A stretch of DNA of 64,000 nt from Planctomycetota bacterium (GCA_038213805.1 JBBQSO010000014.1:1-64000); one strand, 5' to 3'. Numbered from the stretch's first letter, positions 15,849 through 34,479 are shown. The notes: a model not told the origin generated them from the sequence alone. Program-made: numbers and translations.

Positions 15849-17216
15849 CTACTCGATCTTCTTCGTCAACCACGTCCACACCCCGCTTGCGGTGTTGCGC
15901 AGGTGCGAACGTTGCGCGGACAGGTGGCTGCGACGGTAGTCCGCGGCCGCGCACACCAGCCCTGAGACCAGGATGTCGGCGAGTTCGGCGCTGGGATCGC
16001 GGTGCTTCTGCCCGGTGCCGAGCACCACCGGCAGGTCGAATATCTCCTTGAGGTGTGCGGCCAGGCCACCGAGCGAGCTGGCGCGGCCGAGCAGGTGCAC
16101 CTGGCCCTGCTGGCCGAGCAGACCGTGGTCGCGCAGTTCGCCGGCGCGGGCACGGAAGAAGTCGCCGATCACCTCGGCGCAGATCGCCGCGCCGGGGCCG
16201 ACCAGGCGGTGGCGCTCGCGCACGTCGCTCCAGATGAACTGCTGGCCGCCGAGCAGGTTCTCCTGCTTGGCCTCGGCGTGGATGTCGAGGTCGCGCTTGA
16301 GGTCCTCGGCCTGATGCTGGGTGATGCCCAGCCGCTCGACCAGCGCGGCGGTCAGGTCGTCGCCGCCGAAGGCGTGACACTCGAGGTGCATCAGGCGCTC
16401 GCGCCGGCGCACCAGGATCGAGGTGCAGCGCGCGCCGCAGTCGATGACATAGGTGGTGCCCTTGCGCGGCAGGTTGCTGGCCATGCCACGGTAGAGCGCC
16501 ACCGGCTGGGCGATCACGCCTTCAAGCTCGAGATCGAGGCCCTTGACCAGGGCGGCGAGCTCGTCGCGGTAGCCGCGGCGCGCGGTCACCAGCAGCGCCT
16601 GGCAGGTCAGGCGGCTGCCGCGCTGACCGACCGGGTCCTCGACCTCGCGCTCGCCGCTGCGGTCGCGCACCGTCCATTGCACCGGGATGGCCTCGACCAG
16701 CTCGTGGTCGGCGCCGGTCGCCTGGTCGCGCGCGCGCTTGAGCGCCCACGCCGCCTCGTTGGCGGAGAGCACGACCTCGTCACCCGGATCGGCCCAGCCG
16801 ATGGCCAGGCGCGAGGTGATGCTGGGGTCGGACATCGACAGGTAGACGGAGAAGGCCTCGACCCCGGCGCTGTCGCTGGCCAGGCGCACCACGTCGGCGA
16901 GCGCCTCGCGCTTGCCCGACTCGCTGAGTTCGGCCCACACGCAGTCGATCGACTTGTGCGCGACCACCTTGTCGCCGTGCTCGGGGTGCAGCGCGGCGAC
17001 CGTCGCGGAGACGCGCTGGCTGGCGATCAGGACGATGACGACGACATTTTCGGGGGCGATGGGCATGATGGCTGGCCGTCGTGCAGTGATACGCGGCGCA
17101 CGCGGCGCGCCACCGGCGAAGGCCAGGCGCGCCAGCGCCGCGCGCCAGCGGCCGGGGTGGGGCAGGGCCGCGGCGGCGCGACCGCTGTCGCTGCTCCAGG
17201 CTTCATCGTTCCTCAT
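15849..17216 (-). CDS. ftsA: Divergent FtsA-like actin-fold cell-division protein
   Basis: Directly after ftsQ. EDPVG..GSRL, VIDCGA..T, FGGDDLT..L...L......AEDLK, and an amphipathic C-terminus GVWTWLTKK. Start is either 17216 (GGAG RBS) or 17066. Confidence 0.7.
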   Translation of the reverse strand: MRNDEAWSSDSGRAAAALPHPGRWRAALARLAFAGGAPRAPRITARRPAIMPIAPENVVVIVLIASQRVSATVAALHPEHGDKVVAHKSIDCVWAELSESGKREALADVVRLASDSAGVEAFSVYLSMSDPSITSRLAIGWADPGDEVVLSANEAAWALKRARDQATGADHELVEAIPVQWTVRDRSGEREVEDPVGQRGSRLTCQALLVTARRGYRDELAALVKGLDLELEGVIAQPVALYRGMASNLPRKGTTYVIDCGARCTSILVRRRERLMHLECHAFGGDDLTAALVERLGITQHQAEDLKRDLDIHAEAKQENLLGGQQFIWSDVRERHRLVGPGAAICAEVIGDFFRARAGELRDHGLLGQQGQVHLLGRASSLGGLAAHLKEIFDLPVVLGTGQKHRDPSAELADILVSGLVCAAADYRRSHLSAQRSHLRNTASGVWTWLTKKIE

Positions 17217-17268
17217 GGTAGGCTCCGGGCGTCTAAGGTCATTACGGTGCGGGCGGCAGGCGGGCGGC

Positions 17269-18474
17269 TCAGCGCCCGTCGCGCATCACCAGGAAGGGTT
17301 GGCGGAAGCGCACGTTGATCAACGCGACGCGGCCCAGGTCGCCCTGGCAGCGGATGGCGTGCACCAGGTCGCGCACCTTGTCGTCGGGCTTGACGCCAAA
17401 GCGCTCCTCGGCGGGGTTGCCCCACACCAGGCGGCTGCCCTGGCGGGTGTAGAGCACGATGCCGCGGCTGCTGCCCTTGGCGTCGAGGACGTCGGCGAGG
17501 TGGATGTCGGTGACCAAGCCGGGCTCGATCTGCGGTTCGAGCCGCGCCCACAGGTCGAGGGCGGCGCGCGCCGCAGCCAGGCCACCCTGCTCGAGCGCGC
17601 GCACCAGCGGGCGGCGTACCGTCGGGCCGGGCAGGATTCCGGGCAGGACGCGCGCTTCGGCGTCGAGCCAGGCGCGCTCGCCGCTGGCCAGCACCACCGG
17701 CATGACCGGCTGGCGCAGGCCAAGCTCGAGTGCCAGGGTCCGGCGCACGCGATCGGGCGCGCCCGGTAGCGGCTCGTGCACCACCACCACCTGGCGGACC
17801 TCACCGATCGCCGGCAGCACGCGCAGCCACGCCGCGAGCTTGTCCAGCACCCACGGCTGCGGCTCGCCGAGCTTGTCGCGGTAGGGGAAGGCGCGCAGCC
17901 AGCCGATGACCTCGGCCTGGGCCAGGCGCGGGCCGGGCAGGAAATCGACGCGCACGTTGCTGACCGGGATGGGATCCGGGATCTGGCTGCCGGCATAGAA
18001 GCTGAACAGCACCAGCACGGTGATCACCGCGGCGGCGGCCACGCCCCACGGACCGGCGCGGCGCATGCCCGATTGCACCTGCTGCGCGCCGTCGAGGCCG
18101 GCGTGGATGCCGCGCGTGAGCGCGCCCTTGTCAGCGGGCATGGCGTCATCCTCCTGGTCGACGGCGTTGAACACCCCGGCACGCGCCGCGCCCTTGAGCG
18201 GCTTGCGGCGCGGCTTGCGCTTCTCAATGGCGCGGCTGCCGGCCTCGCCATCGACCAGGTAGCCCTCGGGCGGGGTCTCCTCGTGCGCTGCGAGGGCGTC
18301 GAGGGCTTCCGACGAGGGGTTGCGCGCGCGGCGGCCGCGGCGCTTGCGGTCGGCGGCGGCGATGATCCCGGCGCCGTCATCGGCACCGTCGTCGGCGGGC
18401 GGTGCGGGCGCACCGCGGCGCCGCGCCGGCGGCAGCGGGTCGAGGGCGGCGAGCAGGTCGTCGTGGTCGCTCAT
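17269..18474 (-). CDS. ftsQ: FtsQ/DivIB-like protein with long disordered N-terminus
   Basis: Directly after ddl. Single TM, then POTRA-like and beta domains (LRQPV.PV, WLD.EARVLP), ending ALINVRF. Confidence 0.7.
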   Translation of the reverse strand: MSDHDDLLAALDPLPPARRRGAPAPPADDGADDGAGIIAAADRKRRGRRARNPSSEALDALAAHEETPPEGYLVDGEAGSRAIEKRKPRRKPLKGAARAGVFNAVDQEDDAMPADKGALTRGIHAGLDGAQQVQSGMRRAGPWGVAAAAVITVLVLFSFYAGSQIPDPIPVSNVRVDFLPGPRLAQAEVIGWLRAFPYRDKLGEPQPWVLDKLAAWLRVLPAIGEVRQVVVVHEPLPGAPDRVRRTLALELGLRQPVMPVVLASGERAWLDAEARVLPGILPGPTVRRPLVRALEQGGLAAARAALDLWARLEPQIEPGLVTDIHLADVLDAKGSSRGIVLYTRQGSRLVWGNPAEERFGVKPDDKVRDLVHAIRCQGDLGRVALINVRFRQPFLVMRDGR

Positions 18475-19406
18475 GCGTGTTCCTTGGCGCGGGAGCGCGC
18501 GGCGGCGCGGGCCACCAGACGCTCGGCGAGCTCGCCGAAGCCGATGCCGGCGGCGGCGGCGGCCTTGGGCGTCAGGCTCTGGTCGGTGAAGCCGGGCAGG
18601 GTGTTGAGCTCAAGCACCGCGATGCCGCCGTCGGCGCAGCGCATCAGATCGGTGCGCGACAGGTCGCGACAGCCGCAGGCGCGATGCGCGGCCACCGCGA
18701 GCGCGGCGAGCTCGCTGGCCAGGGCGGGATCGGCGACCGGCACCTCCTGGGTGTCGGCGCGCTGGTACTTGGCCTCGAAATCGAAGATCCCCGACGCCGC
18801 GCGGATGGTCAGCGGCGGCAGCGCCCGCGGCCCCGCGTCCTCGTCGATCACCGCGACCGTGTACTCGGGGCCCGGCAGGCGTTCCTCGAGCAGGTAGGGG
18901 ATGGGCCCCGACTCGCGCAGGATCTCTTCGACCGCGGGCAGCAGGAAGCCTGGATTGGCGATCATCTTCAAGCCCACGGAGCTGCCATCGTTCGCCGGCT
19001 TCAGCACCAGCCCGGCGTGGTGCGGGATGCGCAGGTCACGCGGCGAGAATGGGCGCGTGAGGTCGAGCTTCACCCCCCACGGCACGCGGATGCCGGCCTG
19101 CTCCAGACGCTTCTTGGCAGCGTCCTTGTCCATGCACAACGCGCTGGCGGCGGCGTCGCTGCCGACGTAGGCGCGGCCGAGCGCCTCAAGCTCGCGCTGC
19201 AGCGTGCCGTCCTCGCCATAGGTGCCGTGCACGATATTGAAGACCACCGACCCCTGCCGCAGCTGACCGGCATCGAGGCGGCCGGCGAGGTCGATGACCA
19301 GCACGTCGAAGCCGCGCGCGCGCAGCGCCGCCGCGATCGCGGTGCCGGAGCGGCGGCTGATCTGGGCCTCGTGCCCCGGCCCACCCATGACCACATCGAC
19401 GATCAT
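18471..19406 (-). CDS. ddl: D-alanine--D-alanine ligase
   Basis: MGGPGHE..IS..SG, HGTYGEDG.LQ, CMDK, KPANDGSS.G, FDFEAKY, LELNTLPGFT..SL.P. Confidence 0.96.
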   Translation of the reverse strand: MIVDVVMGGPGHEAQISRRSGTAIAAALRARGFDVLVIDLAGRLDAGQLRQGSVVFNIVHGTYGEDGTLQRELEALGRAYVGSDAAASALCMDKDAAKKRLEQAGIRVPWGVKLDLTRPFSPRDLRIPHHAGLVLKPANDGSSVGLKMIANPGFLLPAVEEILRESGPIPYLLEERLPGPEYTVAVIDEDAGPRALPPLTIRAASGIFDFEAKYQRADTQEVPVADPALASELAALAVAAHRACGCRDLSRTDLMRCADGGIAVLELNTLPGFTDQSLTPKAAAAAGIGFGELAERLVARAAARSRAKEHA

Positions 19407-20344
19407 GCCACCACCTCGCTGAGCTGTTCCGGATGGACGTGCAGTTCCGTCGGGCAGGCCCAGGTCTCGATCTCCATCTCCAGCACCACACCGCGCTCAC
19501 GCCAGGCGCGACCGCGGATGAGCCGCACCAGCGCGGCGACGTCGGCGGCGCTGGCGTCGCGGCCCGGGTTGACGATGAAGTTGGCGTGCACCGCACTGAC
19601 CTCGGCGCCGCCGTGGCGCGCGCCCTTCAGGCCGAGCTCGTCGATCAGGCGGCCCGCGGGCAGGCCCGGCGCCGGATTCTTGAACACGCAGCCGGCGCTG
19701 GGTTGGGCGAGCGGCTGGCTGGTGGCCTTGGCCTTCTTCAGCGTCGCCGCCTGGGCACGCAGACGTTCGGGATCGCCTGCGGCCAACTCCATTTCGCAGC
19801 CCAGGAAGAGCGTGCCGGGCGGCAGCCCGCAGGAGCGGTAGGCGGCGGCGAGCGCCGCGCGCTCCAGCCAGCGCGGCGCGTCCTCGCCGGGCAGCACCAC
19901 TTCGACGCGCGTGACCCAGTCCATGGTCCAGCAGGTGCTGGTGCCGGCATTCATGCGCAGCGCGCCGCCCACCGTGGCCGGTACACCGGCGAGGCCCTCG
20001 GGGCCGGCCAGGCCGGCCTTGATGCAGGCGCTGATCAGTTCGGCGAGGTCGACGGCCGCACCGCACTGGACGGTGGCGCGGCCGGCGCGCAGTGGGCCGA
20101 GCACGCAGCTGGCGAAGGCGCCGCCTAGACGCACCACCGCCTCGGGCACGCCGTCGTCGCCGACCAGCAGGTTGGCGCCCTTGCCCAGCCAGCGGTGCGG
20201 CTGAGCGAGCAGCTCGGGCAGATCGGCGCGGTCGGCGAGCGTGACCAGGGTGGCGGGGCCACCGATGCGCATGGTCGTGCACTGCGCGAGCGCGGTGGTG
20301 GCGACCGGGTTGCGCGCGAGGAAGCCGGGAGTGAAGCGCATCAT
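19403..20344 (-). CDS. murB: UDP-N-acetylenolpyruvoylglucosamine reductase
   Basis: TTMRIGGPA, GKGANLLV.D.G, GVPATVGGALRMNAG, SAGCVFKNP, S..HANFIVN. Confidence 0.95.
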   Translation of the reverse strand: MMRFTPGFLARNPVATTALAQCTTMRIGGPATLVTLADRADLPELLAQPHRWLGKGANLLVGDDGVPEAVVRLGGAFASCVLGPLRAGRATVQCGAAVDLAELISACIKAGLAGPEGLAGVPATVGGALRMNAGTSTCWTMDWVTRVEVVLPGEDAPRWLERAALAAAYRSCGLPPGTLFLGCEMELAAGDPERLRAQAATLKKAKATSQPLAQPSAGCVFKNPAPGLPAGRLIDELGLKGARHGGAEVSAVHANFIVNPGRDASAADVAALVRLIRGRAWRERGVVLEMEIETWACPTELHVHPEQLSEVVA

Positions 20345-21813
20345 GCCCTCACCTGCTCGCGCTGCTGGGGCGGATACGCATCGGGCTGATGCGCGTCGCA
20401 CGGGTCGCCGGCGTGCGGGCCATGCTGATCATGGCCCGGCGCGAAAAAATCGAGGAGCGGCCCTGCAAGCTCTCCGACGTCGCCCGCGCCCAGCACCAGC
20501 ACGGTGTCACCTTCGCGCGCATGCGCGGCGACCGCGGCGATGGCCTGCTGGCCGTCGGCCGCAAAGGCGACGGTTTCGGCGGCGAAGCCGGCGCGGCGCG
20601 CCGCAATGGCCTCGGCCAGGGTGCGGCCGTCCACACCGGGGATGGGTGCCTCGCTGGCGGCGTAGATGGGAAGGATGGCGAGGGCATGCACCTGGTCGAA
20701 GGCGGCGGTGAAGTCGGCGAAGCAGGCGGCGGTGCGGGTGTAGCGGTGCGGCTGGAAGATGACGTGCACGCGACCGCCGCCCAGGCGCGCCGCGGCGATG
20801 GTGGCGCGCACCTCGGCGGGATGATGGCCGTAGTCCTCGACCACGCGGATGCCGCGCGGGCTGCCGTGCACGGTGAAGCGCCGGCGCACACGCTCACAGC
20901 GCGCCAGGGCGGACAGTGCGAGATCGGGCAGCACCTGGCGCGCCGCGGCGACCGCCATCAGCGCGTTGTGCAGCATGTGCGCGCCCGGCAGCGGCACGCT
21001 GATCCAGCCCAGGTCCTGGCCATGCGCGATGACGCGCGCGCGGCTGCCGTCGGCGCCCAGCTCGACCTCGGCGCTGTGATAATCGCCGGCGTCCAGCCCG
21101 CAGCGGATCACCGGGCAGGCGAGCCCGGCGGTGACGCGCTCCGCCAGGCCGGTGGTCGGCACGATCGCCGCGCCCTGCGCGGGGATGCGCCCGAGCCAGC
21201 CGCGGAAGGCGTCCTCAAGCGCGGCGAAGCTGCCGTAGTGGTCGAGGTGCTCGCGATCGAGGTTGGTGACGATCGCCACGCTCGGCTCGACCTGGGCGAA
21301 GCTGCCGTCGCTCTCGTCGGTCTCGGCCACGAACAGGTCGCTGCGCCCGGCGCGCGCGCCGCCGCCGCCCAGCGCGCCGACCGCGCCGCCGACCATCACC
21401 ACCGGGTCGAGGCCGGACTCGACCAGCAGATGGCCGAGCATCCAGGTGGTGGTGGTCTTGCCGTGGCTGCCGGCGACCGCCAAGGTGCGCGTCCCCGACA
21501 TCAGCTTGACCAGGCATTCGCCGCGCGTCAGCACCGCCAGTCCGAGCGCGCGCGCTGCGACCAGTTCCGGATGGTCGACAGGCACCGCGGCGGTGTGCAC
21601 GACGATGTCCACGCCCGCGAGATGGGCCGGCGAGTGGCCGAGGTGCACGGCGATGCCACGCCGCGCCAGGCCCGCGGTGACCGCGCCGGCCTGGCCGTCG
21701 CAGCCCGAGACCAGCGCACCGACCTGGATGAGCAGCGGCGCGAGGGCGCTGACGCCGGCCCCACCGATGCCGATGAGGTGGACGTGGCGGTCGCGGAAGA
21801 AGCTGGTGATCAT
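20341..21813 (-). CDS. murC: UDP-N-acetylmuramate--L-alanine ligase
   Basis: HLIGIGGAGVSALA, GSHGKTTTT, ETDESDGSF, TNLDREHLDHY, DYGHHP.E, FQPHRYTRT. Confidence 0.97.
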   Translation of the reverse strand: MITSFFRDRHVHLIGIGGAGVSALAPLLIQVGALVSGCDGQAGAVTAGLARRGIAVHLGHSPAHLAGVDIVVHTAAVPVDHPELVAARALGLAVLTRGECLVKLMSGTRTLAVAGSHGKTTTTWMLGHLLVESGLDPVVMVGGAVGALGGGGARAGRSDLFVAETDESDGSFAQVEPSVAIVTNLDREHLDHYGSFAALEDAFRGWLGRIPAQGAAIVPTTGLAERVTAGLACPVIRCGLDAGDYHSAEVELGADGSRARVIAHGQDLGWISVPLPGAHMLHNALMAVAAARQVLPDLALSALARCERVRRRFTVHGSPRGIRVVEDYGHHPAEVRATIAAARLGGGRVHVIFQPHRYTRTAACFADFTAAFDQVHALAILPIYAASEAPIPGVDGRTLAEAIAARRAGFAAETVAFAADGQQAIAAVAAHAREGDTVLVLGAGDVGELAGPLLDFFAPGHDQHGPHAGDPCDAHQPDAYPPQQREQVRA

Positions 21814-23060
21814 GGCGTGGCCGGGGCCGCGGACAGGGCGGAGAGTTCGGCGGACGCATCGGCTTCCACCGCCAGCGCGGACGCGACCCTGCCCGGGGCC
21901 GAGCGCGCAGAGAGCGTCAGCGACGGCAGCAGTTGGGCGACGTGCGCGGTGCGTCCGGCGCTGCGCTGCGCGACGCCCGCGGCGCGCCGACGCTGCGGGC
22001 CGAGGCCCTCGACCAGCGCTGCGACCTCGGCGGCGGCCGTCGGCCGTGCCAGGCGCAGCGCGGCCACGCCCATGCGCGCGACCAGGTCGCGGCGCGCGGC
22101 TAGGCGCGCGAGCAGCGCGGCCAGCTCCAGCGGGGTGGTCGTGCCCTGGGGCAGCACCAGCGCGCCGCCGACGCGCGCGACGGCGCGCGCGTTGGCGGTC
22201 TGGTGGTCTTCGGCCGCCCACGGCAGTGGCACGTAGAGCGCGCCGATGCCGGCCGCGCACAGTTCGGCGACGGTGGTGGCGCCGGCGCGGGTGATGGCGA
22301 GGTCGATGGTCGCGTAGAGGCCGGGCATGTCCTGGTAGAAGCCGTGCACCTCAGCGGCGACGCCGGCCGTGGCGTAGAGCGCGCGCACGCGCTCCTGGTC
22401 CTCGTCGCCGGCCAGGTGGACGACGCGCAGGCCGGGGATGGCGGCGAGTGTCGGCGCGGCCAGCGCGACCAGGTCGTTGAGGGTGCGCGCCGCCAGGCTG
22501 CCGCCGGCGACCAGCACGGTCAGGCCGGCGCCGCCGCCGCGCGGCAGCGGGGCGATGGCGCGCACCGGATTGCCGATTTGCACGACGCGCGCGCCCGGCA
22601 GCTCGCGGCGCGCCTCGGGGAACTGGGTGACGACGCGGTCGGCGAAGCGCGCTAGCAGGCGGTTGGTGCGGCCGGCGCGCGCGTTCTGTTCCATCACCAC
22701 CAGCGGCCGGCCGAGCAGCGGCGCGAGCAGCCCCGGCACCAGCGCGGCGTAGCCGCCGAGCGCCACCACCGCGGCGGGCGGCCGCCGGCGCAGCTCACGC
22801 AGGCACTGCCACGCCGCCCACGCGGAGGCGAGTAGCCAGCGCGGGCTGCTCAGACGCGGCCGCGACAAGCCCCAGGGCAGCAGCGCGATGCCCGCAGCGG
22901 GCACCAGCCGCGCCTCGATGCGCTGCGGATCGCCGATCCAGCGCAGCGTGCCCTGGCCACGAGCGCGCAGCGCGCTGGCCACGGCCAAGCCGGGCAGCAC
23001 GTGGCCGCCGGTGCCGCCACCGCAGAAGAGGATGCCGTCAGCTTTCGGCATGGGTTTCAC
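21810..23060 (-). CDS. murG: Lipid I N-acetylglucosaminyltransferase
   Basis: GGGTGGHV.P, GGYA, EQNA..GRTNR, GNPVR, GGSLAA, RAGATTVAE, HQTANA. Confidence 0.96.
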   Translation of the reverse strand: MKPMPKADGILFCGGGTGGHVLPGLAVASALRARGQGTLRWIGDPQRIEARLVPAAGIALLPWGLSRPRLSSPRWLLASAWAAWQCLRELRRRPPAAVVALGGYAALVPGLLAPLLGRPLVVMEQNARAGRTNRLLARFADRVVTQFPEARRELPGARVVQIGNPVRAIAPLPRGGGAGLTVLVAGGSLAARTLNDLVALAAPTLAAIPGLRVVHLAGDEDQERVRALYATAGVAAEVHGFYQDMPGLYATIDLAITRAGATTVAELCAAGIGALYVPLPWAAEDHQTANARAVARVGGALVLPQGTTTPLELAALLARLAARRDLVARMGVAALRLARPTAAAEVAALVEGLGPQRRRAAGVAQRSAGRTAHVAQLLPSLTLSARSAPGRVASALAVEADASAELSALSAAPATP

Positions 23061-23269
23061 GCATGGGGCACATCGCGCAGCTCACGGCGCGCGCCGCGCT
23101 GCATGACGCGCAGGCGGGTGACGACCGAACGCAGGCGCTCGCGCGTGCGCTCGGCGAGGTCGAGGCTCAGCACCACCCCTTCACCGGCCAGCAGCACGGG
23201 CAGCACCGCGCCGGCTGCAGTGGCGGAGGCGAGCGGATCGCGGCGGCGCACCGCGTGATTGAGCTTCAT
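23057..23269 (-). CDS. Small (70 aa) hypothetical protein between ftsW and murG
   Basis: ATG overlaps the ftsW stop (ATGA) and is preceded by GGAGGTG. Its stop overlaps the murG GTG (GTGA). Confidence 0.6.
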   Translation of the reverse strand: MKLNHAVRRRDPLASATAAGAVLPVLLAGEGVVLSLDLAERTRERLRSVVTRLRVMQRGARRELRDVPHA

Positions 23270-24459: not shown

Positions 24460-24629
24460 GGGCGGAAGTCCCGGGGACGCGAGGCGGAGGGCGGGTGGCG
24501 ATGAGCGGATGCCGCTAAGCGGTCCGCGCTGAGCGCCGCACACGTCGGCAAGCGCGAGGCGCGAGGAGCGAGGCGCGAGGCCGTGCGCACCAGGTGCATG
24601 CCGTGGAAGGGGCGGGCGGTGGTGCTCAT
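24456..24629 (-). CDS. 57-aa bridging ORF in the murD position, partly encoded by a repeat
   Basis: ATGA overlap with the mraY stop and ATGA overlap with the ftsW start. Contains GCGCGAG-type heptamers. Confidence 0.4.
   Translation of the reverse strand: MSTTARPFHGMHLVRTASRLAPRASRLPTCAALSADRLAASAHRHPPSASRPRDFRP
24552..24580. repeat. Degenerate heptamer tandem repeat (GCGCGAG/GAGCGAG x4)
   Basis: GCGCGAG GCGCGAG GAGCGAG GCGCGAG G. Near-identical to the reverse complement of the CTCGCGT array at 39591. Confidence 0.75.
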
Positions 24630-25843
24630 CTGACCTTCAACGTGGCGAGAGCGGCCAGGGCGCCGAGCGCCGCGACGATCCAGAAGCGCAGCACGATCTT
24701 CGACTCGGGCCAGCCCTTGTATTGAAAGTGGTGGTGGATGGGCGCGCACAGGAACACCCGCTTGCCGCCGCGCAGGCGGTAGCTGGCGACCTGGATGGCC
24801 ACCGAGGCGGCCTCGACCACGAACACCAGGCCGACCAGCAGGATGAGGAATTCCTGCTTGGTGTTGAGCGCGATCAGGCCGAACACCCCGCCCAGCGCCT
24901 GGCTGCCGGTATCGCCCATGAAGACCTCGGCGGGCGCCGAGTTGAACCACAGGAAGCCCAGGCACGCACCGGCGATGGCGGCGCAGTAGATGGCGACGTC
25001 CTGACCGCCGGAGATGTACAGCACCTTGAGGTAGTCGGCGCTGTCGACGCGGCTGGTCAGATAGGCGATGCCCATGAAGGCGAGCGCAGCGATCAGCATG
25101 GTGCCCGAGGCCAGGCCATCCATGCCGTCGGTGAAGTTCACGCCGTTGGCGCACGACACGCTGACGAAAACCACCCACAGCACCGAGCCCACGCCGAGGT
25201 TGACCGCCCACTCCACCGGCACGAACGGGAAGCTGAGCTGGTGCACGCCTAGGCGCACGGTGTAGCTGATGTCGTGGCCCTGCAGCTCGAAGTGCTTCTT
25301 GTACCAGTCGAGCGGGAAGCCCGCCGGGTGGTCGGCGCCGGTCAGCAGCAGGTCGGCGTTGTGCTGGTTGATGATGTAGAGCCCGATGCCGCACACCGCG
25401 GCGGCGAGCAGCTGGATGCCGAGCTTCACCGAGGACGGCGTGCCCTTGGCGCCCTTGAAGATCTTGGTGCGGTCGTCGAGGAAACCGACCAGCGCGAACG
25501 ACAGCAGCCCGAACTGCAGCAGCCAGCTGCGCAACTCGAGCGGATCGCACCACAGCAGGCCGGTCACCGCGATGCACGCCACCAACCCCAGCCCACCCAT
25601 GGTCGGCGTGCCCTTCTTGCCCTCGCGCATCGCGTCGACCACCACCGCGCCGTCGCCCTTCGCGCCGGACTCGCCGAACTTCTTGCGCTTCAGCCAGCGG
25701 ATCAGCGGCGGCATCGCCACCAGCATGAGGATGAACGCGGTCAGCGCCGCCAGCACCACGCGCGTGGTGACATAGTCGAGCAGGCGCAGCGGGCCCCAGT
25801 AGATGCCCCAGTCGGCGAGCAGGTTGTTGAGGCGGCTCATCAT
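24626..25843 (-). CDS. mraY: Phospho-N-acetylmuramoyl-pentapeptide transferase
   Basis: [50 protein letters not shown]...GW.E.KIV.RFW. Confidence 0.97.
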
Positions 25844-27297
25844 GGCGTGCAGACCCCGGCGTGGCGGCCGGTGGGGACGTCGACCAGGGCGCGCACCACG
25901 GTCTCAAGGCCGGCGGAGCGGCTGGCCTTGACCAGGATGGTGGTCGTGCCCGCCGCGAGGCGGCGCGCGATCAGCGGCAGCGCAGTCTCGCGATCAGCGG
26001 CGTGCTCGCCGTCGGGACCGCCGGCGGCGCGGTAGGCGTCGAGGATGGCGCGTGCGCGCTCCCCGACCGTGAGCAGGGGCAGGGCGAGGCGCGCGGCCTC
26101 CGCACCGACCTGGGCGTGGCCGGCGGCGCTGCCGTCGCCCAGTTCGCCCATGCCGCCCAGCACCGCCAGGCGGCGCCCGGCGTAGCCGGCCAGCACCTGC
26201 AGGCCGGCGGCCATGCTGCCGGGGTTGGCGTTGTAGCTGTCATCAAGGACCAGGTGCCCGCCACTGGCCGGGCGCGCGCGCAGGCGGCCCGAGACCGCAG
26301 TGATCGCACCCAGCGCGCGCAGCGCGGCATCGGCGGGCACGCCGGCCGCGACCGCGGTGCGCCAGGCGAGCGCCGCATTGGCGAGGTTGTGCGCGCCGAG
26401 CAGGGTGAGGTCGACGCTGCCGCTGGCGGTGCGCAGGGTGATGCCGGCGTCGCGCACGTCGCCCTCGACCGGCAACGCGCTGGAGCCGACCTCGAGCAGA
26501 TGCCGACCCGCGGCGCGCTCGCGTAGCGCGGCGAGCAGCACCGCGGCGTCCTGGCCGCCCGCGCGCGCCGCGGCCTCCAAGCCGTGCAGGCCGAGCAGCG
26601 CCGGCGCGCCAGCGGGCAACGCTGCGAACAGTTCGCCCTTGGCGCGCGCCACGCCAAGCAGTGAACCGAAGCCCTCAAGATGGGCTGGGCCGATGGCGGT
26701 GATGACGCCGAGCTGCGGCTGGGCGATGGCGGCGAGCGCGGCGATCTCGCCGGGGTGGTTGGCGCCCAGCTCGATGACCGCGTGCGCCACCCCAGGCGGC
26801 GTGTTCAGCACCGTCACCGGCACGCCCAGGTGGTTGTTGAGATTGCCGCGCGTCGCGTGCACCGCGCCGCCCGCGCCGCAGGCCAGCGCGATCAGCTCCT
26901 TGACGGTGGTCTTGCCGTTCGAGCCGGTGACGCCGATCCAGGTCGCGCCCTGGTAGCGGCGGCGGAACTCCATGGCCAGGGCGGCAAGCGCCAGGGTGAC
27001 GTCGGCGACCACCAGCACCGGCACCGGCACCGCCACCGGACGGGTGGCGAGGATCAACGCCGCGCCGTCCCCGACCGCGGTGGCGGCGAAGTCGTGGCCG
27101 TCGTGGCTGGCGCCGGGCAGGCAGGCGAAGAGGTTGCCGCGCCGCACCGCACGGCTGTCGATGCTCGCGCCGTGGACGACGACCTCGCGCGCCGCACCGT
27201 GCCACACCCCGCCGGTCAGGCGCACCGCAACCTGCTGATCGAGCAGGAACGGAGCCGGGCGGGGAACGCTGGCGACGGGCAGGCGCGCGGAGGTCAT
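25840..27297 (-). CDS. murF: UDP-MurNAc-tripeptide--D-Ala-D-Ala ligase
   Basis: IDSR, HDGHDF, GVTGSNGKTTVKE, NLNNHLGVP, ELGANHPGEI, DDSYNANP.SM, LVKASR. Confidence 0.97.
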   Translation of the reverse strand: MTSARLPVASVPRPAPFLLDQQVAVRLTGGVWHGAAREVVVHGASIDSRAVRRGNLFACLPGASHDGHDFAATAVGDGAALILATRPVAVPVPVLVVADVTLALAALAMEFRRRYQGATWIGVTGSNGKTTVKELIALACGAGGAVHATRGNLNNHLGVPVTVLNTPPGVAHAVIELGANHPGEIAALAAIAQPQLGVITAIGPAHLEGFGSLLGVARAKGELFAALPAGAPALLGLHGLEAAARAGGQDAAVLLAALRERAAGRHLLEVGSSALPVEGDVRDAGITLRTASGSVDLTLLGAHNLANAALAWRTAVAAGVPADAALRALGAITAVSGRLRARPASGGHLVLDDSYNANPGSMAAGLQVLAGYAGRRLAVLGGMGELGDGSAAGHAQVGAEAARLALPLLTVGERARAILDAYRAAGGPDGEHAADRETALPLIARRLAAGTTTILVKASRSAGLETVVRALVDVPTGRHAGVCTP

Positions 27298-28904
27298 GGG
27301 CGGGTTGGCTCCGCACCGGCCGCCGGGTCGCCGCTGGCAACGATGCCGCCCTCGAGTCCGGCCACGAAGGCGCGGTCGTCCCACGGCAGCACGCGGTCCT
27401 TGATGATCTGGCTGGTCTCGTGGCCCTTGCCCGCGACCACCACCACGCCCTCGGGCCCGGCCAAGGCGCGTGCCAGGCGGATGGCGCGCGCGCGGTCGAG
27501 CTCGACCACCAGCAGGCGGCCATCGGGCATGCGCTTGCCATCCATCATCACCACCGGCGTGGCGCCAGGGGTGCGCAGCGCGGCGGCCAGGACCTGCAGA
27601 TCGGCGCCGGCGCCACTCTCGGCCCAGAACACCTGGGTGCTCTGCGGCAGGCCGGCGATGACCTCCTCGGCGATGCTGCGCGGCTCCTCGCCGCGGCTGT
27701 TGTCGGTGGTCAGCACACCAAGGTCGGCCTCGAGCGCAGCGCAGCCCATCGGCCCGCGCTTGGTGCGGTCGCGGTCGCCGCCGCAGCCGTAGACGCACAC
27801 CAGGCGGCGCTGCGGAAACTCGCGGCGCACCGCGCGCAGCATCACCGCGATCTCCTCCGGAGTGTGCGCGTAGTCGACGAAGGTGTCGGGGCCGTGCGCA
27901 AGCAGCTCAAGGCGGCCGGGCACCGCCGGCAGCGTGGCGAGGCGCGCCAGTGCGGTCGCCAGCGGCACGCCGGTGGCGCTAGCCATCAGCGCGCCAGCCG
28001 CCGCGTTCCAGGCGTTGAAGTCGCCGGGCAGGCGCACCGGCAGCGGGTAGTCGATGCCGGCGAAACGCAGCCGCCAACCGCGTTCGGCCTTGACGATGCG
28101 CGCCTCGCCCTTGGCGAAGCCCAGGGTCAGCACGCGCGCGCCCGCGGTCTGCGCGGCGTGGGCGACGGTGTGCGCGTGCGCGTCCTCGGCGTTGACGATC
28201 GCCAGGCCGCCCGGTGCCAGCCAGCGGAAGATGCGCAGCTTGGCCTGCAGGTAGGCGCCAAGCGTGCGGTGGTAGTCGAGGTGGTCCCGGCCCAGGCCGG
28301 TGAAAGCGACCGCGGCGAAGCGCAGCCCGGCGAGGCGCTGCTGGTCGCCGGCGTGCGACGAAGCCTCGAGCGCCACGCCCGGGCAGTCGCCGGGCAGCCC
28401 GGCGAGGAAGCGGTGCAGCTCTTCGGGCGGCGGCGTGGTCTGCGCGTTGGGGCGCTCGGCGGTGCCGTCATGCCAGCCGATGGTGCCGACGCGCGCGGCG
28501 CGCGTCTCGGCCCCGCCCATCGCCCACCACGCGCAGTGGGTGGTGGTCGACTTGCCCGCGGTGCCGGTGACCGCGACCAGCGGCGGGTGCGCCAGATCCA
28601 GACCGTGCGCCGCGGCGCTGGCGCGCGCGAAGGCCCAACGCGGGTGCGCGCTGCGCAGGCCCGGCCCCTCGTCCTCGAGTTCGGCGACGATCACCGCGGC
28701 GCCGGCGGCGTGCGCCTCGGCGCGGTGCCGGGCGCGTTCCGCGGTGCGGCCGCTCGCCACGTAGGCCTCGCCGGGGCGCACCGTGCGGCTGTCGCGCGCG
28801 ATGCCGGCGAGCGCGGCCGGCAGCACGAGCGCGCCGCCGGCCGGCTGCGCGGTCAGCGCGGGCAGCAGGGCCTGACCAGCGAAGAGACGGGCGATGGGCA
28901 TCAT
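27294..28904 (-). CDS. murE: UDP-MurNAc-dipeptide--(meso-DAP) ligase
   Basis: VTGTAGKSTT, TTPP, LEASSH, RDHLDYH, PGRLE, VDYAHTP, GCGGDRDRTKR..MG, DNSR.E, AGKGHE. Confidence 0.93.
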   Translation of the reverse strand: MMPIARLFAGQALLPALTAQPAGGALVLPAALAGIARDSRTVRPGEAYVASGRTAERARHRAEAHAAGAAVIVAELEDEGPGLRSAHPRWAFARASAAAHGLDLAHPPLVAVTGTAGKSTTTHCAWWAMGGAETRAARVGTIGWHDGTAERPNAQTTPPPEELHRFLAGLPGDCPGVALEASSHAGDQQRLAGLRFAAVAFTGLGRDHLDYHRTLGAYLQAKLRIFRWLAPGGLAIVNAEDAHAHTVAHAAQTAGARVLTLGFAKGEARIVKAERGWRLRFAGIDYPLPVRLPGDFNAWNAAAGALMASATGVPLATALARLATLPAVPGRLELLAHGPDTFVDYAHTPEEIAVMLRAVRREFPQRRLVCVYGCGGDRDRTKRGPMGCAALEADLGVLTTDNSRGEEPRSIAEEVIAGLPQSTQVFWAESGAGADLQVLAAALRTPGATPVVMMDGKRMPDGRLLVVELDRARAIRLARALAGPEGVVVVAGKGHETSQIIKDRVLPWDDRAFVAGLEGGIVASGDPAAGAEPTRP

Positions 28905-30925
28905 CGGGCGGAATCTCCGGAGATGGTGACGGCGCGCGGGGCGGCGGAACTGGAGACGGTCAGCGGGGCGTCGGCGTCCTCGCGCGGCGCGGCAGGCGCG
29001 TGCGCGGCGGTCGGGCGCGCCGCGCCGCGGACGGGACGGGCGGATCGCGCCGGCGCGGCGCTGGCAGCGGCGACCGGTCGTGCAACCGCGGCAGCCGGAG
29101 CGGCCGGCGCACCGGCGACCGTGCTGGTACGGCCGGCCTTGGCGTCCTTCGCCGCGAGCTTCTCCTGCTCCGCCGCGACCAGGTCCGCACGCTTGGGCAC
29201 GTGCAGATATTCGAGCGATGCCTGCAGCGCCTTCTGCACCACCGGTGCGGCGGTCTCGGCGCCGTAGTGGCCGCCGCGGCTGGGGTCGTCGATCACCACC
29301 AGGCACAGCAGTTCGGGCTCGACGTTCGGCTCGGCCGGGGCCCAGCACACGAACGAGCCGACGTGGTTGGCGTGCGAATAGTGGCCGCCGACCAGTTTCT
29401 CGGCGGTGCCGGTCTTGCCCGCGGCGGTGTAGCCGGAGAGCTCGGCTTTGCGCCCGGTGCCCTCGGTCATGGTGTGGGTCATCGCCTCCTGGATCTGCGC
29501 GGCGTCGTCGACACTGAAAGTGCGCCGGGCCGGGGGCAGCACCGGCAGCGGCAGCTCGCGGCCGCGCCCGTGCTCGTCGAGCGAATAGATGCGCCGCACC
29601 AGACGCGGCGGCAGCCACACCCCGTGGTTGGCGGTGGCGGCGTGGGCCATGGCCAGCTGCAGCGGCGTAACCGCGATCTCGTGGCCCATCGGGATCGACA
29701 TGCACGAGCCGAGCACCGACCAGCGCGGGCGCGCCAGCACGATGCCGGCATCCTCGCCGGGCAGACAGATGCCGGTGCGGCGGCCGAAGCAGAAGGTGCC
29801 GACCCAGCGGAACAGGCGCTCGACGCCCAGGCGGATGCCGAGCTTGGCCATCAGGATGTTGTCGGACAAGGCGATGCCCTGGGTGACGGAGAGGTTGCCG
29901 TGGCCGCCGCTGCCGACGCTGTGGTCAGTGATGGTACGCACCGCCTTGCCTTCGCGGTGCGTCCAGCGCCCATGCTCGCAGAAGATGCTCTCGGCCCAGG
30001 TCGTCAGGCCCTCGGCCACGGTCGCGCCGGCGATCAGCGGCTTCATCGTCGAGCCCGGCTCGTAGACGAAGGCGATGACGTTGTCGCGCAAGGCGCGCGG
30101 CTGCAGCTTGGTCATGTCGGTCGGGTCGAAGGACGGATAGCTCGCCATCGCCACGATCTCGCCGGTGGTCGGGCGGACCATGATCGCCGCGGCGTTCGCG
30201 GGCCGGCTCTTCTCGACCTGCTCGAGCAGGGCCTGTTCGAGGATATGCTGCAGGGTGGCGTCGATGGTCAGCTGGACGTGCGCGCCGCCCTGGGCGGGCA
30301 CGCTTTCGGCGTCGGTCAGACTGGGCTTGCCGAGCGCGTCGATGGTCACGGTCTCGTGCCCGGGTACGCCGCCGAGCAGCGCGTTGCAGGTCTGCTCGAG
30401 GCCGGCGCCGCCACTGCCGTCGCTCTGCACGAAGCCGAGCACGTGCGCGGCGAGCGGCCTTTCCGGATAGCGGCGGGTGAACTCGCGGCGCACGTAGACG
30501 CCGGTCAGGTTGAGCTTGCGGATCTGCTCGGCGTGGTCGTCGTCGACGCCCTTGGCGAGCAGCCGACCGTTGCGCGGCGACTCGAACTGTTCGCGCAGAT
30601 GGTCGCGCGGCAGGCCGAGCAGGCGCGCCAGCTCGACGGTCGCGCGCAGGCGGTCGTCCATGTACACCGGGTCGCAGCTGATCGTCCAGGTGCCGTCGCT
30701 GACCGCGAGCGGCGCACCCTGCGCGTCGTAGAAGTTGCCGCGCGCCGCGGGCAGCGTCCAGGTGCGGGTGCGCTGCTTCTCGCCCATCTGCGCGAGGTGC
30801 TCCGCCTGGTCGACCTGCAGGTGGTGCAAGCGCATCGTCACCAGTCCGAACAGCCCCGCGAACACCAGCAGGGCAAGGCCGGTGCGCCAGGGTTGTGCGG
30901 TGACAGGGACGAGCGCTTCGTTCAT
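28901..30925 (-). CDS. ftsI: Class B penicillin-binding protein (FtsI/PBP3)
   Basis: N-terminal TM, RG.FYD, R.YP, G..GLE, YEPGSTMK (SxxK), SDN, GKTGTA. Ala/Pro-rich C-terminal tail. Confidence 0.93.
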   Translation of the reverse strand: MNEALVPVTAQPWRTGLALLVFAGLFGLVTMRLHHLQVDQAEHLAQMGEKQRTRTWTLPAARGNFYDAQGAPLAVSDGTWTISCDPVYMDDRLRATVELARLLGLPRDHLREQFESPRNGRLLAKGVDDDHAEQIRKLNLTGVYVRREFTRRYPERPLAAHVLGFVQSDGSGGAGLEQTCNALLGGVPGHETVTIDALGKPSLTDAESVPAQGGAHVQLTIDATLQHILEQALLEQVEKSRPANAAAIMVRPTTGEIVAMASYPSFDPTDMTKLQPRALRDNVIAFVYEPGSTMKPLIAGATVAEGLTTWAESIFCEHGRWTHREGKAVRTITDHSVGSGGHGNLSVTQGIALSDNILMAKLGIRLGVERLFRWVGTFCFGRRTGICLPGEDAGIVLARPRWSVLGSCMSIPMGHEIAVTPLQLAMAHAATANHGVWLPPRLVRRIYSLDEHGRGRELPLPVLPPARRTFSVDDAAQIQEAMTHTMTEGTGRKAELSGYTAAGKTGTAEKLVGGHYSHANHVGSFVCWAPAEPNVEPELLCLVVIDDPSRGGHYGAETAAPVVQKALQASLEYLHVPKRADLVAAEQEKLAAKDAKAGRTSTVAGAPAAPAAAVARPVAAASAAPARSARPVRGAARPTAAHAPAAPREDADAPLTVSSSAAPRAVTISGDSAR

Positions 30926-30941
30926 CAGGGGGTCGGCGGGG

Positions 30942-31247
30942 TCAGCGGACGGCGAGCGGGGCGGCGGCGCGGTCGCGCGCAGCGGTGGGTTCCGGACCGG
31001 TGAGCGGCAGCTCGATACGGCGCGCGATGTCCTCGAGCGCGGTCGGGCTGGCCGCCTGGTCGAGGACCGCGCGCAGGCGCTCCTGCTTGTAGGCGAGGTC
31101 GGTGCGCGCCTTGAAGTCGGCACCGCGCTGCTTGGCGAGCGCGGCCTGTTCGTTGCCGAGCAGCGCGACCTTGAGGGCGATGGCCAGGGCCAGGCTGATC
31201 CAGGCCACCGCGACCAGGGCGTGCAGGAAGAGGTCGGGACGCTTCAT
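30942..31247 (-). CDS. ftsL: FtsL-like bitopic coiled-coil protein
   Basis: 101 aa, TM followed by a coiled coil, located between rsmH and ftsI and coupled to the rsmH stop. The call is mainly positional. Confidence 0.65.
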   Translation of the reverse strand: MKRPDLFLHALVAVAWISLALAIALKVALLGNEQAALAKQRGADFKARTDLAYKQERLRAVLDQAASPTALEDIARRIELPLTGPEPTAARDRAAAPLAVR

Positions 31248-32143
31248 GGGTGGGCTCCGGCGCGTTCAGCCCAGCGCAGCTTTGCGGGGGCGGAACGCGG
31301 GTTGGCGGACAGTTCGGCTGCACCGGCGGTGATCACGCGGCGCGCAGCGTCGGCATAGGTGCCGGCCTCGCGGCGATCGCGGAAGTCGGTCTTCACGGCG
31401 CGGTCTTCAAGGCTGTGGAAGCTGATCACCACCGCGCGCCCGCCCGGGGCGAGCAGCGCGGGCAGCGCGGCGAGCAGGCGGCCGAGCTGGCCGAGCTCGT
31501 CGTTCACGGCGATGCGCAGGGCCTGGAAGGTGCGGCCCGCGGGATGGCGGTTATGGTGACCGGGCACCACGCGGCGGATCTCCTCCGCGAGCTCGGCGCC
31601 GGTGTGCAGGCGGCCTTCCGTGCGGCCGCGCTTGAGTGCGGCGGCGATGCGCCGGCTGAGGCGCTCTTCGCCGTATTGGTAGATGATGTCGGCGAGCTCG
31701 TCCTGGCCGAGCGCATCGATCAGCTCCAGCGCGCTGCGCGGGCAGCCGTCGCCCATGCGCATATCGGCCTGCGCGGCCGAGCGGATGGAGAAGCCCCGGT
31801 TGTCGTCGTCAAGTTGCATGCTCGAAACCCCGAGATCCGCCAACACGCCGTCGAAACGCTCCCCCTCCCTGACCAGCGCCTCCATGGCGTCGGCGAAGGT
31901 CCCGGCGCGCACGCTGAAGCGCGCCCCGTAGGCCGCGAGCCGCGTCGTCGCCAACGCGCGCGCCTGCGCATCGCGGTCCACTCCGTGGACCGTGGCCCCG
32001 CCTGCAAGCAGGGCCTCGCTGTGGCCACCCAGACCCAGGGTGCAGTCCAGCACCCGCCGGCCCGGCGCGGGGCGGAGGTGTTCGACCACCTCCGCGAGCA
32101 GCACCGGGATGTGACGCGCCGCGGCGTCGGTCGGCTCAGGCAC
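31244..32143 (-). CDS. rsmH: 16S rRNA m4C1402 methyltransferase
   Basis: HIPVLL.EV, DCTLGLGGHS, DLGVSSMQLD...RGFS, YGEER, FQALRIAVNDEL, ISFHSLEDR.VK, NPRS..AKLR. Confidence 0.97.
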   Translation of the reverse strand: MPEPTDAAARHIPVLLAEVVEHLRPAPGRRVLDCTLGLGGHSEALLAGGATVHGVDRDAQARALATTRLAAYGARFSVRAGTFADAMEALVREGERFDGVLADLGVSSMQLDDDNRGFSIRSAAQADMRMGDGCPRSALELIDALGQDELADIIYQYGEERLSRRIAAALKRGRTEGRLHTGAELAEEIRRVVPGHHNRHPAGRTFQALRIAVNDELGQLGRLLAALPALLAPGGRAVVISFHSLEDRAVKTDFRDRREAGTYADAARRVITAGAAELSANPRSAPAKLRWAERAGAHP

Positions 32144-32369
32144 CGACGGCCACGCGCGGCGCCGCCGCGGCCGCGTGGTCGACGGTCCGGCGCAAAAAAG
32201 CGAGGTAGGCACTGTCCTCGGCCACCGCCGGGCCGAGGCGCCGACGCAGGCAGGTAAGGCGCAGGGCGGCGAGTTCGAGGTCGCCCTGCAGGTCGGTGCC
32301 GCTGGCGGTGGAGTGCTCCACCGCGGCGTCGAGGGCGTGCAGCAGGCGACCGAGCGTGACATCGTGCAT
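32136..32369 (-). CDS. Small (77 aa) helical hypothetical protein between mraZ and rsmH
   Basis: ATG preceded by GGAG. GC3-biased codons. Its stop overlaps the rsmH start by 8 nt. Confidence 0.6.
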   Translation of the reverse strand: MHDVTLGRLLHALDAAVEHSTASGTDLQGDLELAALRLTCLRRRLGPAVAEDSAYLAFLRRTVDHAAAAAPRVAVGA

Positions 32370-32425
32370 GGCGGTCTCCATGGTCGTGACGGCGCAGATC
32401 CGGGCGGCGGGGGCGGGGCTCATGC

Positions 32426-32926
32426 CTAGATCATCAGGTAGGAGTTGAGGTCGGCGTTGTAGCTGGGGCCCGCATCGCGGCCCGACCAGGCGAGGTAGTC
32501 GGCGGGATTCCACACCTGGATGGTGGTGTTGGTGCAGACGAAGAAGACGTCGCGCTCAAGGCCGAGGTAGCCGACCAGGTGGGCGGGCAGCACCACGCGG
32601 TGCTGGGCGTCGATCGCCATCGAGGCCATCTCGCCATTGAGCGCGGTGACCAGGTGCAGGCGCTGCTCGGGACTAAGCCGGGCATCGTCAAGGATGCGCT
32701 GCTCGCGGCGCTGGAGCTCCTTCTCGGTGAGCAGCAGAAGGATCGGGTAGACGCGATTTTCTGCATTTTTCCCGGCATTTCCCGCGCCGCCCACGGTCGG
32801 CATCGCGTGCTTCATGCCGCGCAGATGGTCCACGCCGGCCTCCTGCAGGAGGGCACGGGCCTCGCGCGGGATGGTCACCTGATTCTTCGGCGACAGACGT
32901 TGGGTTGGAAGCACGGCCAGCTCCAC
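32426..32926 (-). CDS. mraZ: Divergent MraZ transcriptional regulator
   Basis: First gene of the cluster. Two AbrB-like repeats (LSPKNQVTIP; IDAQHRVVLP..L...LGL..DV.FV......QVWNP). Confidence 0.8.
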   Translation of the reverse strand: MELAVLPTQRLSPKNQVTIPREARALLQEAGVDHLRGMKHAMPTVGGAGNAGKNAENRVYPILLLLTEKELQRREQRILDDARLSPEQRLHLVTALNGEMASMAIDAQHRVVLPAHLVGYLGLERDVFFVCTNTTIQVWNPADYLAWSGRDAGPSYNADLNSYLMI

Positions 32927-34469: not shown

Positions 34470-34479
34470 CTCGCCCGGC

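Follow-up and report, generated by a model that had tools for sequence, protein, structure and literature searches.

We analysed a division and cell wall (dcw) gene cluster from an uncultured family of Planctomycetota, which occupies the minus strand of positions 15849-32926 in a window of 64,000 nucleotides and terminates at a divergent ftsA gene with no ftsZ behind it. The window, that is, the whole stretch of DNA that was analysed, represents contig C14 of a 5.5-Mb Planctomycetota metagenome-assembled genome (180 contigs, 90.3% complete, 2.6% contaminated). To the family of this genome belong at least 40 further genomes of species rank, spread over 18 genera, and public planctomycete records share 95-98% identity with the window in ftsA, the gene that closes the cluster. 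Comparisons across the phylum were made in a sample of 401 evenly drawn genomes, and families other than that of the window are referred to by number (f13, f17 and so on).

Organization of the dcw cluster

The window DNA has a G+C content of ~72% and consequently displays long spurious open reading frames (ORFs) in all six frames; genes were chosen by family matches in combination with the G+C content of the codon positions. Read along the minus strand, the cluster runs mraZ-rsmH-ftsL-ftsI-murE-murF-mraY-ftsW-murG-murC-murB-ddl-ftsQ-ftsA. Pfam or NCBIfam models name 12 of these genes, all save ftsL and ftsQ, and their order is the canonical one; together with position and predicted fold, these matches bear out the arrangement from mraZ to ftsA that the initial annotation had given. 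Only the empty murD and ftsZ slots deviate from the canonical cluster. The genes, and the neighbour that follows ftsA, are listed below.

32426..32926, minus strand: mraZ, 166 amino acids; Pfam MraZ 27.1 bits (cut-off 23), the NCBIfam MraZ models being below their cut-offs
31244..32362, minus strand: rsmH (mraW); Pfam Methyltransf_5 276.6 bits, and synteny; start uncertain, relatives aligning from residue ~52-84
30942..31247, minus strand: ftsL-like gene, 101 amino acids, bitopic product; assigned by position and topology; ATGA overlap with rsmH
28901..30925, minus strand: ftsI (class B penicillin-binding protein); Pfam Transpeptidase 186.2 and PBP_dimer 58.7 bits; start at ATG 30925 or GTG 31123
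27294..28904, minus strand: murE; Mur_ligase_M and Mur_ligase_C; ATGA overlap with ftsI; name from cluster position
25840..27297, minus strand: murF; Mur_ligase, Mur_ligase_M and Mur_ligase_C; ATGA overlap; name from cluster position
24626..25843, minus strand: mraY; Pfam Glycos_transf_4 101.7 bits; ATGA overlap with murF
23266..24543, minus strand: ftsW (shape, elongation, division and sporulation (SEDS) family); Pfam FTSW_RODA_SPOVE 313.2 bits; best SEDS model TIGR02614 ftsW, 323.6 bits (cut-off 337.5); start within 24390-24543
21810..23060, minus strand: murG; Glyco_transf_28 and Glyco_tran_28_C
20341..21813, minus strand: murC; Mur_ligase, Mur_ligase_M and Mur_ligase_C; ATGA overlap with murG
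19403..20344, minus strand: murB; MurB_C and FAD_binding_4; ATG 20344 overlaps the murC stop
18471..19406, minus strand: ddl; Dala_Dala_lig_C and Dala_Dala_lig_N
17269..18474, minus strand: ftsQ, 401 amino acids; predicted-fold match to FtsQ structures
15849..17066, minus strand: divergent ftsA, 405 amino acids from the methionine at 17066; the longest ORF, from 17216, has 455 amino acids
14947..15792, minus strand: cyclophilin-type peptidyl-prolyl isomerase with a signal-like N terminus; Pfam Pro_isomerase 166.5 bits; outside the cluster

The translational coupling remarked upon earlier takes the form of ATGA stop/start overlaps at eight junctions (rsmH/ftsL, ftsI/murE, murE/murF, murF/mraY, murG/murC, murC/murB, murB/ddl and ddl/ftsQ), the remaining intergenic gaps measuring 63, 82, 205 and 52-202 nucleotides. 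The interval between mraY and ftsW is the gene-free gap of 82 nucleotides, and this stretch yielded no murD match in any of the five complete family clusters fetched. The report of a missing murD therefore stands for the usual slot but not for the genome, as murD has been relocated to contig C78 (G000:C78:15089-16345; TIGR01087 271.3 bits, cut-off 211.95). Its neighbours there are unrelated: an IF-2B family gene, an RF-1 domain gene, CorA, a phosphodiesterase, a flavin adenine dinucleotide (FAD) flavoprotein and a Rieske protein. The move looks old and is trivial.

For the ftsL-like protein, no family match was obtained in Pfam or NCBIfam; it has an N-terminal membrane helix with a helical stretch behind it, and is kept at its position in 5/5 complete family clusters with 33-53% identity. 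In the whole genome, no FtsB/DivIC match rose above the cut-off (best 19.9 versus 28.9 bits). The ftsQ product remained unmatched in sequence searches of Pfam, NCBIfam and the PDB. Its AlphaFold model, computed with 13 homologues, has a predicted local distance difference test (pLDDT) score >90 for residues ~150-400, and FtsQ structures take all of the first ten Foldseek ranks (8hhf_Q, E 2.2e-7; 2vh1; 6h9o; 8bh1_C) at TM-scores of 0.51-0.67, target-normalised. As judged from the model, the 401-residue product is FtsQ, with a predicted bitopic layout of a cytoplasmic N terminus of ~150 residues (mostly of low confidence), one membrane helix and a periplasmic POTRA plus beta domain. The N-terminal extension contains a helix, 'LIAAAxRKR', with invariant Ala and Arg, which is conserved in the family, as well as another basic run; the FtsQ proteins of f47, f17 and f90 are devoid of this extension.

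The last gene encodes a divergent FtsA

The last gene was initially annotated as a degenerate ftsA, a description that suits its scores as well as its altered nucleotide motifs. The product passes the Pfam thresholds narrowly (FtsA 34.7 bits, cut-off 31.8; SHS2_FTSA 27.9 bits, cut-off 25.4) and falls below the NCBIfam equivalog cut-off (TIGR01174, 74.7 versus 175.85 bits). A profile of 21 planctomycete homologues (A1) matches E. coli-type FtsA in the PDB (7q6d) with E 2.9e-69 (positions 4-378 of 406), whereas MreB and PilM reach 3.9e-15 at best. Modelled with AlphaFold, the protein obtains an average pLDDT of 89, and Foldseek places FtsA at ranks 1-14 (TM-score 0.63-0.73) and PilM from rank 20. 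The last gene thus encodes a true FtsA with an actin-like fold that includes the 1C (SHS2) subdomain. In more distant family members, the alignment sets in only at residue ~48-58 of the long ORF, and ATG 17066, giving 405 amino acids, is therefore the likely start.

Compared with canonical FtsA (E. coli, Vibrio, S. aureus, T. maritima; 7q6d, 7q6f, 3wqt, 4a2a), the window protein shares the fold including 1C, the place after ftsQ and, throughout the family, a C-terminal tail with a conserved Trp-Leu. In the window this tail reads 'GVWTWLTKKIE'; its Trp-Leu pair is nearly invariant among the 21 sequences, lies at the position of the membrane-targeting helix of FtsA and is modelled as a helix with pLDDT ~67. 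In contrast to the canonical proteins, to which it is 11-19% identical, the window FtsA has three altered loops and is deprived of an FtsZ partner.

These loops are the ones that line the nucleotide cleft. Their names and roles as phosphate-1, phosphate-2 and adenosine loops we take over from actin-fold ATPases generally. The consensus sequences are as follows.

Phosphate-1 loop: (A/V)(L/V)D(I/V/L)G(S/T) in other planctomycete families; VLIAS / ISS in the window family
Phosphate-2 loop: D(I/V)GxGT in other planctomycete families; DCGAR(C/H)T in the window family
Adenosine loop: LTGG in other planctomycete families; L(V/L)GR(A/G) in the window family

The window FtsA itself carries 'VLIAS', 'DCGARCT' and 'LLGRAS' in place of 'DIGS/T', 'DIGxGTT' and 'LTGG'; across the family, the replacements can be condensed to 'LISS', 'DCGARxT' and 'LVGR'. 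All three loops are replaced in 14/14 window-family sequences and degenerate in 3/3 of f17, and the invariant residues R213 and R328 of the window family stand where glycines are normal. Conversely, phosphate-1 is canonical in every FtsA read that covers the loop and has an adjoining FtsZ homologue (f47, f13, f79, f57 and f59). The FtsA of f31, where the downstream DNA ends with the contig, has a canonical phosphate-1 loop too, and the phosphate-2 and adenosine loops are mostly canonical in f47, f13, f79, f57, f59 and f31. From these motifs we infer that FtsA of the window family probably dispenses with the usual ATP binding or hydrolysis.

An FtsA descendant with such a cleft might have been recruited outside division, either as a PilM-like pilus or secretion platform or as a partner of MreB in elongation. 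A weak likeness to PilM (Pfam PilM_2 25.5 bits; Foldseek ranks 20-29) and the separation of ftsA from ftsQ in 3/8 family loci would fit such a change of function, but FtsA structures clearly outrank PilM, no pilN/pilO-like partner follows ftsA, and the gene is the last of a complete dcw cluster in 5/8 family loci fetched and holds the terminal position also in f17, f47 and f90. We therefore regard recruitment as improbable.

In the three loci in which it is detached from ftsQ (G021, G011 and G023), ftsA is intact throughout. In G021 (L117, C428), ftsA and ftsQ-ddl face each other from opposite strands; in G011 (L114, C102) and G023 (L115, C34), the retrieved upstream flanks, 17 kb and 4.5 kb long, respectively, contain no dcw gene.

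It is very unlikely that the gene is a functionless relic nearing loss, with the broken ATP site as a sign of decay. The degenerate nucleotide motifs, a branch of 1.58 substitutions per site and the loss of ftsA reported for most planctomycetes in a passage of PMC12673574 could be read in this way; however, in 24/24 family genomes, which represent at least 13 genera, ftsA is of full length and free of stop codons, its identity to the window sequence being 41-71%. Moreover, 41 columns of the FtsA alignment are invariant, among them the replacement residues R213, R328, D209, G211 and T215, the model is confident, and the gene has been kept even after rearrangement away from ftsQ. This pattern of conservation indicates that ftsA is kept under selection and is not decaying.

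FtsZ is lost throughout the family

No tubulin-signature protein had been noticed after ftsA, and we found neither a tubulin/FtsZ gene behind ftsA in the window nor one elsewhere in the genome. In the window genome, the Pfam models Tubulin (PF00091), FtsZ_C (PF12327) and Tubulin_2 (PF13809) gave 0 matches each. Among 14 control genomes, the Tubulin and FtsZ_C searches were positive in 13 and Tubulin_2 in three. The last model corresponds to the FtsZl1 family, which a passage by Makarova and Koonin (PMC2875224) reports from planctomycetes. Likewise, Pfam Tubulin was without a match in relatives (0/24 family genomes, and 0/23 in a second survey).

As the Pfam matches to planctomycete FtsZ homologues were few and weak, we built two profiles, A3 and A5, from planctomycete FtsZ homologues of other families. 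Profile A3 revealed no FtsZ in 41/41 family genomes, the window genome included (61-96% complete); its positive controls scored E 3.4e-141 for a genome that contributed to the profile (G198) and E 2.9e-36 for one that did not (G122). Profile A5 found nothing in the window genome nor in 23/23 family genomes, and the best match among 35,734 six-frame ORFs of at least 80 amino acids from the window genome, searched with hmmsearch --max, had E 0.37. ZapA and SepF were not found in the window genome either. A pattern for the FtsZ C-terminal peptide matched once, inside a 168-residue ORF and not at its C terminus, which by a rough estimate is about what chance would produce.

The cyclophilin gene that had been placed right after ftsA does start there, its ATG lying 56 nucleotides past the ftsA stop. 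Two independent assemblies, those of the two closest relatives (L002 and L003), show the same ftsQ-ftsA-cyclophilin junction, and therefore a misjoin does not explain the missing ftsZ. More distant family members have no cyclophilin downstream of ftsA; beyond the closest relatives, the DNA past ftsA is non-conserved and often bears convergent genes, and a search for a gene conserved at this place across the family found none.

We regard the loss of ftsZ as genuine for the whole family: a normal ftsZ, which would have turned the observation into a mere relocation, was found neither in the genome nor in close relatives (0/41 family genomes). A very unlikely alternative is that FtsZ is present and was missed, in the unassembled 10% of a genome that is 90.3% complete in 180 contigs or through divergence beyond all profiles used; planctomycete homologues can indeed be very divergent, with custom-profile E values as weak as 1e-12, and Pfam Tubulin overlooked those of f47 and of G298 and G312 (f57), which the custom profile alone found, yet the custom profiles drew blanks in all 41 and 23 family genomes with a best E of 0.37 in the window genome, ZapA and SepF are missing too, and the homologue-bearing families have ftsZ directly after ftsA, where the window family has cyclophilin or non-conserved genes instead.

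FtsZ-less planctomycete division as such is not new but already published for the phylum. In passages of PMC12673574 and PMC12283558, the loss of ftsZ is given as the state of Planctomycetota, and ftsA is reported as lost 'in most species' or 'with few exceptions'.

Other planctomycete families keep ftsA-ftsZ pairs

In the 401-genome sample, full-length FtsA was present in 23/23 genomes of the window family, 3/3 of f13 and 3/4 of f17, as well as in 10 genomes of f47, 7 of f79, 2 of f59, at least 3 of f57 and 1 each of f90 and f31. Pfam Tubulin was positive in 15/401 genomes, and profile A5 in 26/401. Of the latter, 24 are clear and belong to f13, f47, f57, f59, f79 and f90, and two are marginal (~1e-3; f40 and f51); A5 retrieved no FtsZ in f17 (0/4). 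The FtsZ homologue directly follows ftsA in the loci examined of f13, f47, f57, f59 and f79, and in G229 (f90) each of them is on a short contig of its own. Loci with such pairs are L001 (G036:C123), L131-L135, L138, L139, L141, L143, L146-L148, L151 and L152.

Over its whole length, profile A5 matches solved FtsZ structures with E 3e-67, and 9/9 aligned FtsZ homologues carry at their very C terminus the motif '(L/V/I)D(I/V/T)P(A/T)F(L/I/V)R', which we take to be the conserved FtsA-binding peptide of FtsZ. The GTP signature varies by family: it reads GGGTGAG in f13 and f90, GGQTG in f79 and GKGFGSG in f59, and is unrecognisable in f47. To judge by these features, six uncultured planctomycete families (f13, f47, f57, f59, f79 and f90) possess a bona fide, divergent ftsZ, which contradicts the review statement that the gene was lost in all planctomycetes. 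Our data suggest restricting the phrase 'all planctomycetes lack FtsZ' to the cultured classes.

The phylum accordingly presents three states, namely an FtsZ homologue together with an FtsA of canonical loops, a lone FtsA with degenerate loops (the window family and f17), and, in most genomes, neither gene. The families f13, f47, f57, f59, f79 and f90 have the same dcw order as the window, murD being absent from the mraY-ftsW interval wherever this is visible; in clusters of other families, the MraY or FtsW match is sometimes partial or missing. Their FtsQ and FtsA are of the types seen in the window family, in most cases with the Trp-Leu tail; they differ in having their own divergent FtsZ and canonical FtsA loops, both of which the window family is without. 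The notion of an 'intermediate' division system, voiced when the cluster was first described, thereby gains some support, as other uncultured families keep the ftsA-ftsZ pair as opposed to ftsA alone here. In a quick FtsA tree, from which the duplicate G122 and the 5'-truncated G036 were left out, long branches lead to the window family (1.58 substitutions per site) and to f17 (1.3).

A multi-pass membrane protein of ~222-225 amino acids with no Pfam match is encoded after the FtsZ homologue at L001:2105-2782 (plus strand) and L143:2380-3048 (plus strand). The membrane proteins of G036 (f13) and G122 (f47) have an 'EIEN...W-P-L-F' stretch in common, and their genes may represent a third, conserved member of the ftsA-ftsZ unit.

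A proposed scaffold function of FtsA without FtsZ

The window family keeps FtsQ, the FtsL-like protein, FtsW, FtsI, all Mur enzymes, Ddl, the alanine racemase-like gene, MreB and FtsA; in the window genome, MreB is encoded at C3:21609-22595 (456.2 bits). With no FtsZ in the family and an altered FtsA, the earlier suggestion of an FtsZ-less divisome in which FtsQ, FtsL, FtsW and FtsI are retained and FtsA has been repurposed describes the situation fairly. We propose, at a probability of roughly 0.7, that the locus is the dcw operon of an uncultured family in which ftsZ was lost, murD was moved and a diverged FtsA serves as an ATP-independent scaffold in the absence of an FtsZ ring. According to this model, loss of FtsZ would have freed FtsA from its ATP-dependent interplay with FtsZ. 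The ATP site would have decayed after that loss, as the cross-family comparison leads us to infer, with the scaffold surfaces of FtsA being kept. FtsA would then act as a membrane-attached, nucleotide-independent scaffold that organises or activates the septal wall synthase formed by FtsQ, FtsL, FtsW and FtsI, and positioning and force might come from MreB or from wall synthesis itself.

Several points weigh against this proposal. The window genome is 90.3% complete, so that absence of ftsZ there alone is no proof, and it is the family-wide result that carries the claim. The suggested loss of ATP turnover derives from motifs, and in our alignment E. coli FtsA itself has Glu, not Asp, in phosphate-1. 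The C-terminal tail is not measurably amphipathic, its hydrophobic moment of 0.39 being reached by 30% of shuffled sequences, and contact of FtsA with FtsQ, FtsL, FtsW and FtsI is a proposal only. In the quick tree, the window family and f17 come out neither as clear sisters nor as clearly separate, so that they may have lost FtsZ once or twice, and the correlation between altered loops and missing FtsZ may thus amount to as few as one or two events. Finally, passages of PMC12673574 and PMC12283558 describe the remaining dcw genes of Planctopirus limnophila as non-essential save ftsK; the presence of such genes is therefore no proof of a role in division.

Much more tentatively, and with the odds rather against it, the differences among families might be extended to the history of the phylum. 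There would then have been no single loss of FtsZ at the planctomycete root but a stepwise erosion of the GTP signature, from GGGTGAG over GGQTG and GKGFGSG to an unrecognisable sequence, with the C-terminal tail kept, and the window family would be the end state, dividing without FtsZ on the basis of FtsA, which as a membrane scaffold independent of nucleotide would organise the wall synthase unaided.

The dcw clusters described for FtsZ-less Planctomycetota (Phycisphaerae, Brocadiia and Planctomycetales) in passages of PMC12673574, PMC12283558 and PMC5147048 resemble that of the window in being without ftsZ and a recognisable ftsB, in keeping mur genes, mraY, ftsI, ftsW, ftsQ and ddl, and in the presence of MreB. 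They differ from it in that the window cluster is near-intact, follows the canonical order and retains ftsA and an adjoining alr-like gene. The passages concerned treat ftsA as present or absent only and leave an altered nucleotide site unmentioned. In the planctomycete division literature that was searched, no account of an altered-site FtsA or of ftsA-ftsZ families was found; the figures or supplements of the two 2025 papers may list FtsA-positive species. Parts of the divisome for wall synthesis are likewise kept without FtsZ in Chlamydiota, another phylum of the Planctomycetota-Verrucomicrobiota-Chlamydiota group. What appears to be new here is a conserved FtsA with a seemingly rebuilt nucleotide cleft that has outlived FtsZ, along with the apparent survival of ftsA-ftsZ in some uncultured families.

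Division without FtsZ is poorly understood in planctomycetes, whose cultured models have either lost most dcw genes or made them dispensable. The FtsA of the window family, having outlived FtsZ in a near-complete, coupled operon, is a concrete candidate for an organiser of FtsZ-free septation. In addition, the series across families could show the order in which a Z-ring is dismantled, from FtsA with canonical FtsZ over FtsA with signature-less FtsZ to FtsA alone, its ATP site apparently dead.

Neighbouring genes and minor features

The initial annotation had counted three extra small genes in the cluster. The 101-residue ftsL-like gene is the sole small gene that we could uphold; the other small ORFs overlap named genes in other frames, as is usual in DNA of 72% G+C. 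Two ORFs considered as extra genes, one of 112 amino acids (17213-17551) and one of 282 (23057-23905), were rejected, since they have no family match and overlap ftsQ and ftsW, respectively, in other frames.

Beyond the cyclophilin gene, an ORF of ~658 amino acids (12838-14814, minus strand) with weak esterase and peptidase S9 matches is unrelated to the cluster. Apart from MreB itself, the genome contains weak MreB_Mbl matches of 41-64 bits at C37:2674-3636, C4:49947-50714 and C75:13607-14296, which are probably other actin-fold or Hsp70-type proteins. On the other side of the cluster, directly upstream of mraZ and separated from it by a gap of 604 nucleotides, lies the following gene.

33531..34517, minus strand: alanine racemase-like gene, 328 amino acids; Ala_racemase_N 71.5 and Ala_racemase_C 31.9 bits, both above their cut-offs

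Its score with TIGR00492 is 55.4 bits, below the cut-off of 168. A passage of PMC12673574 reports alr as lost in most planctomycetes, and the gene adjoins the dcw cluster here.

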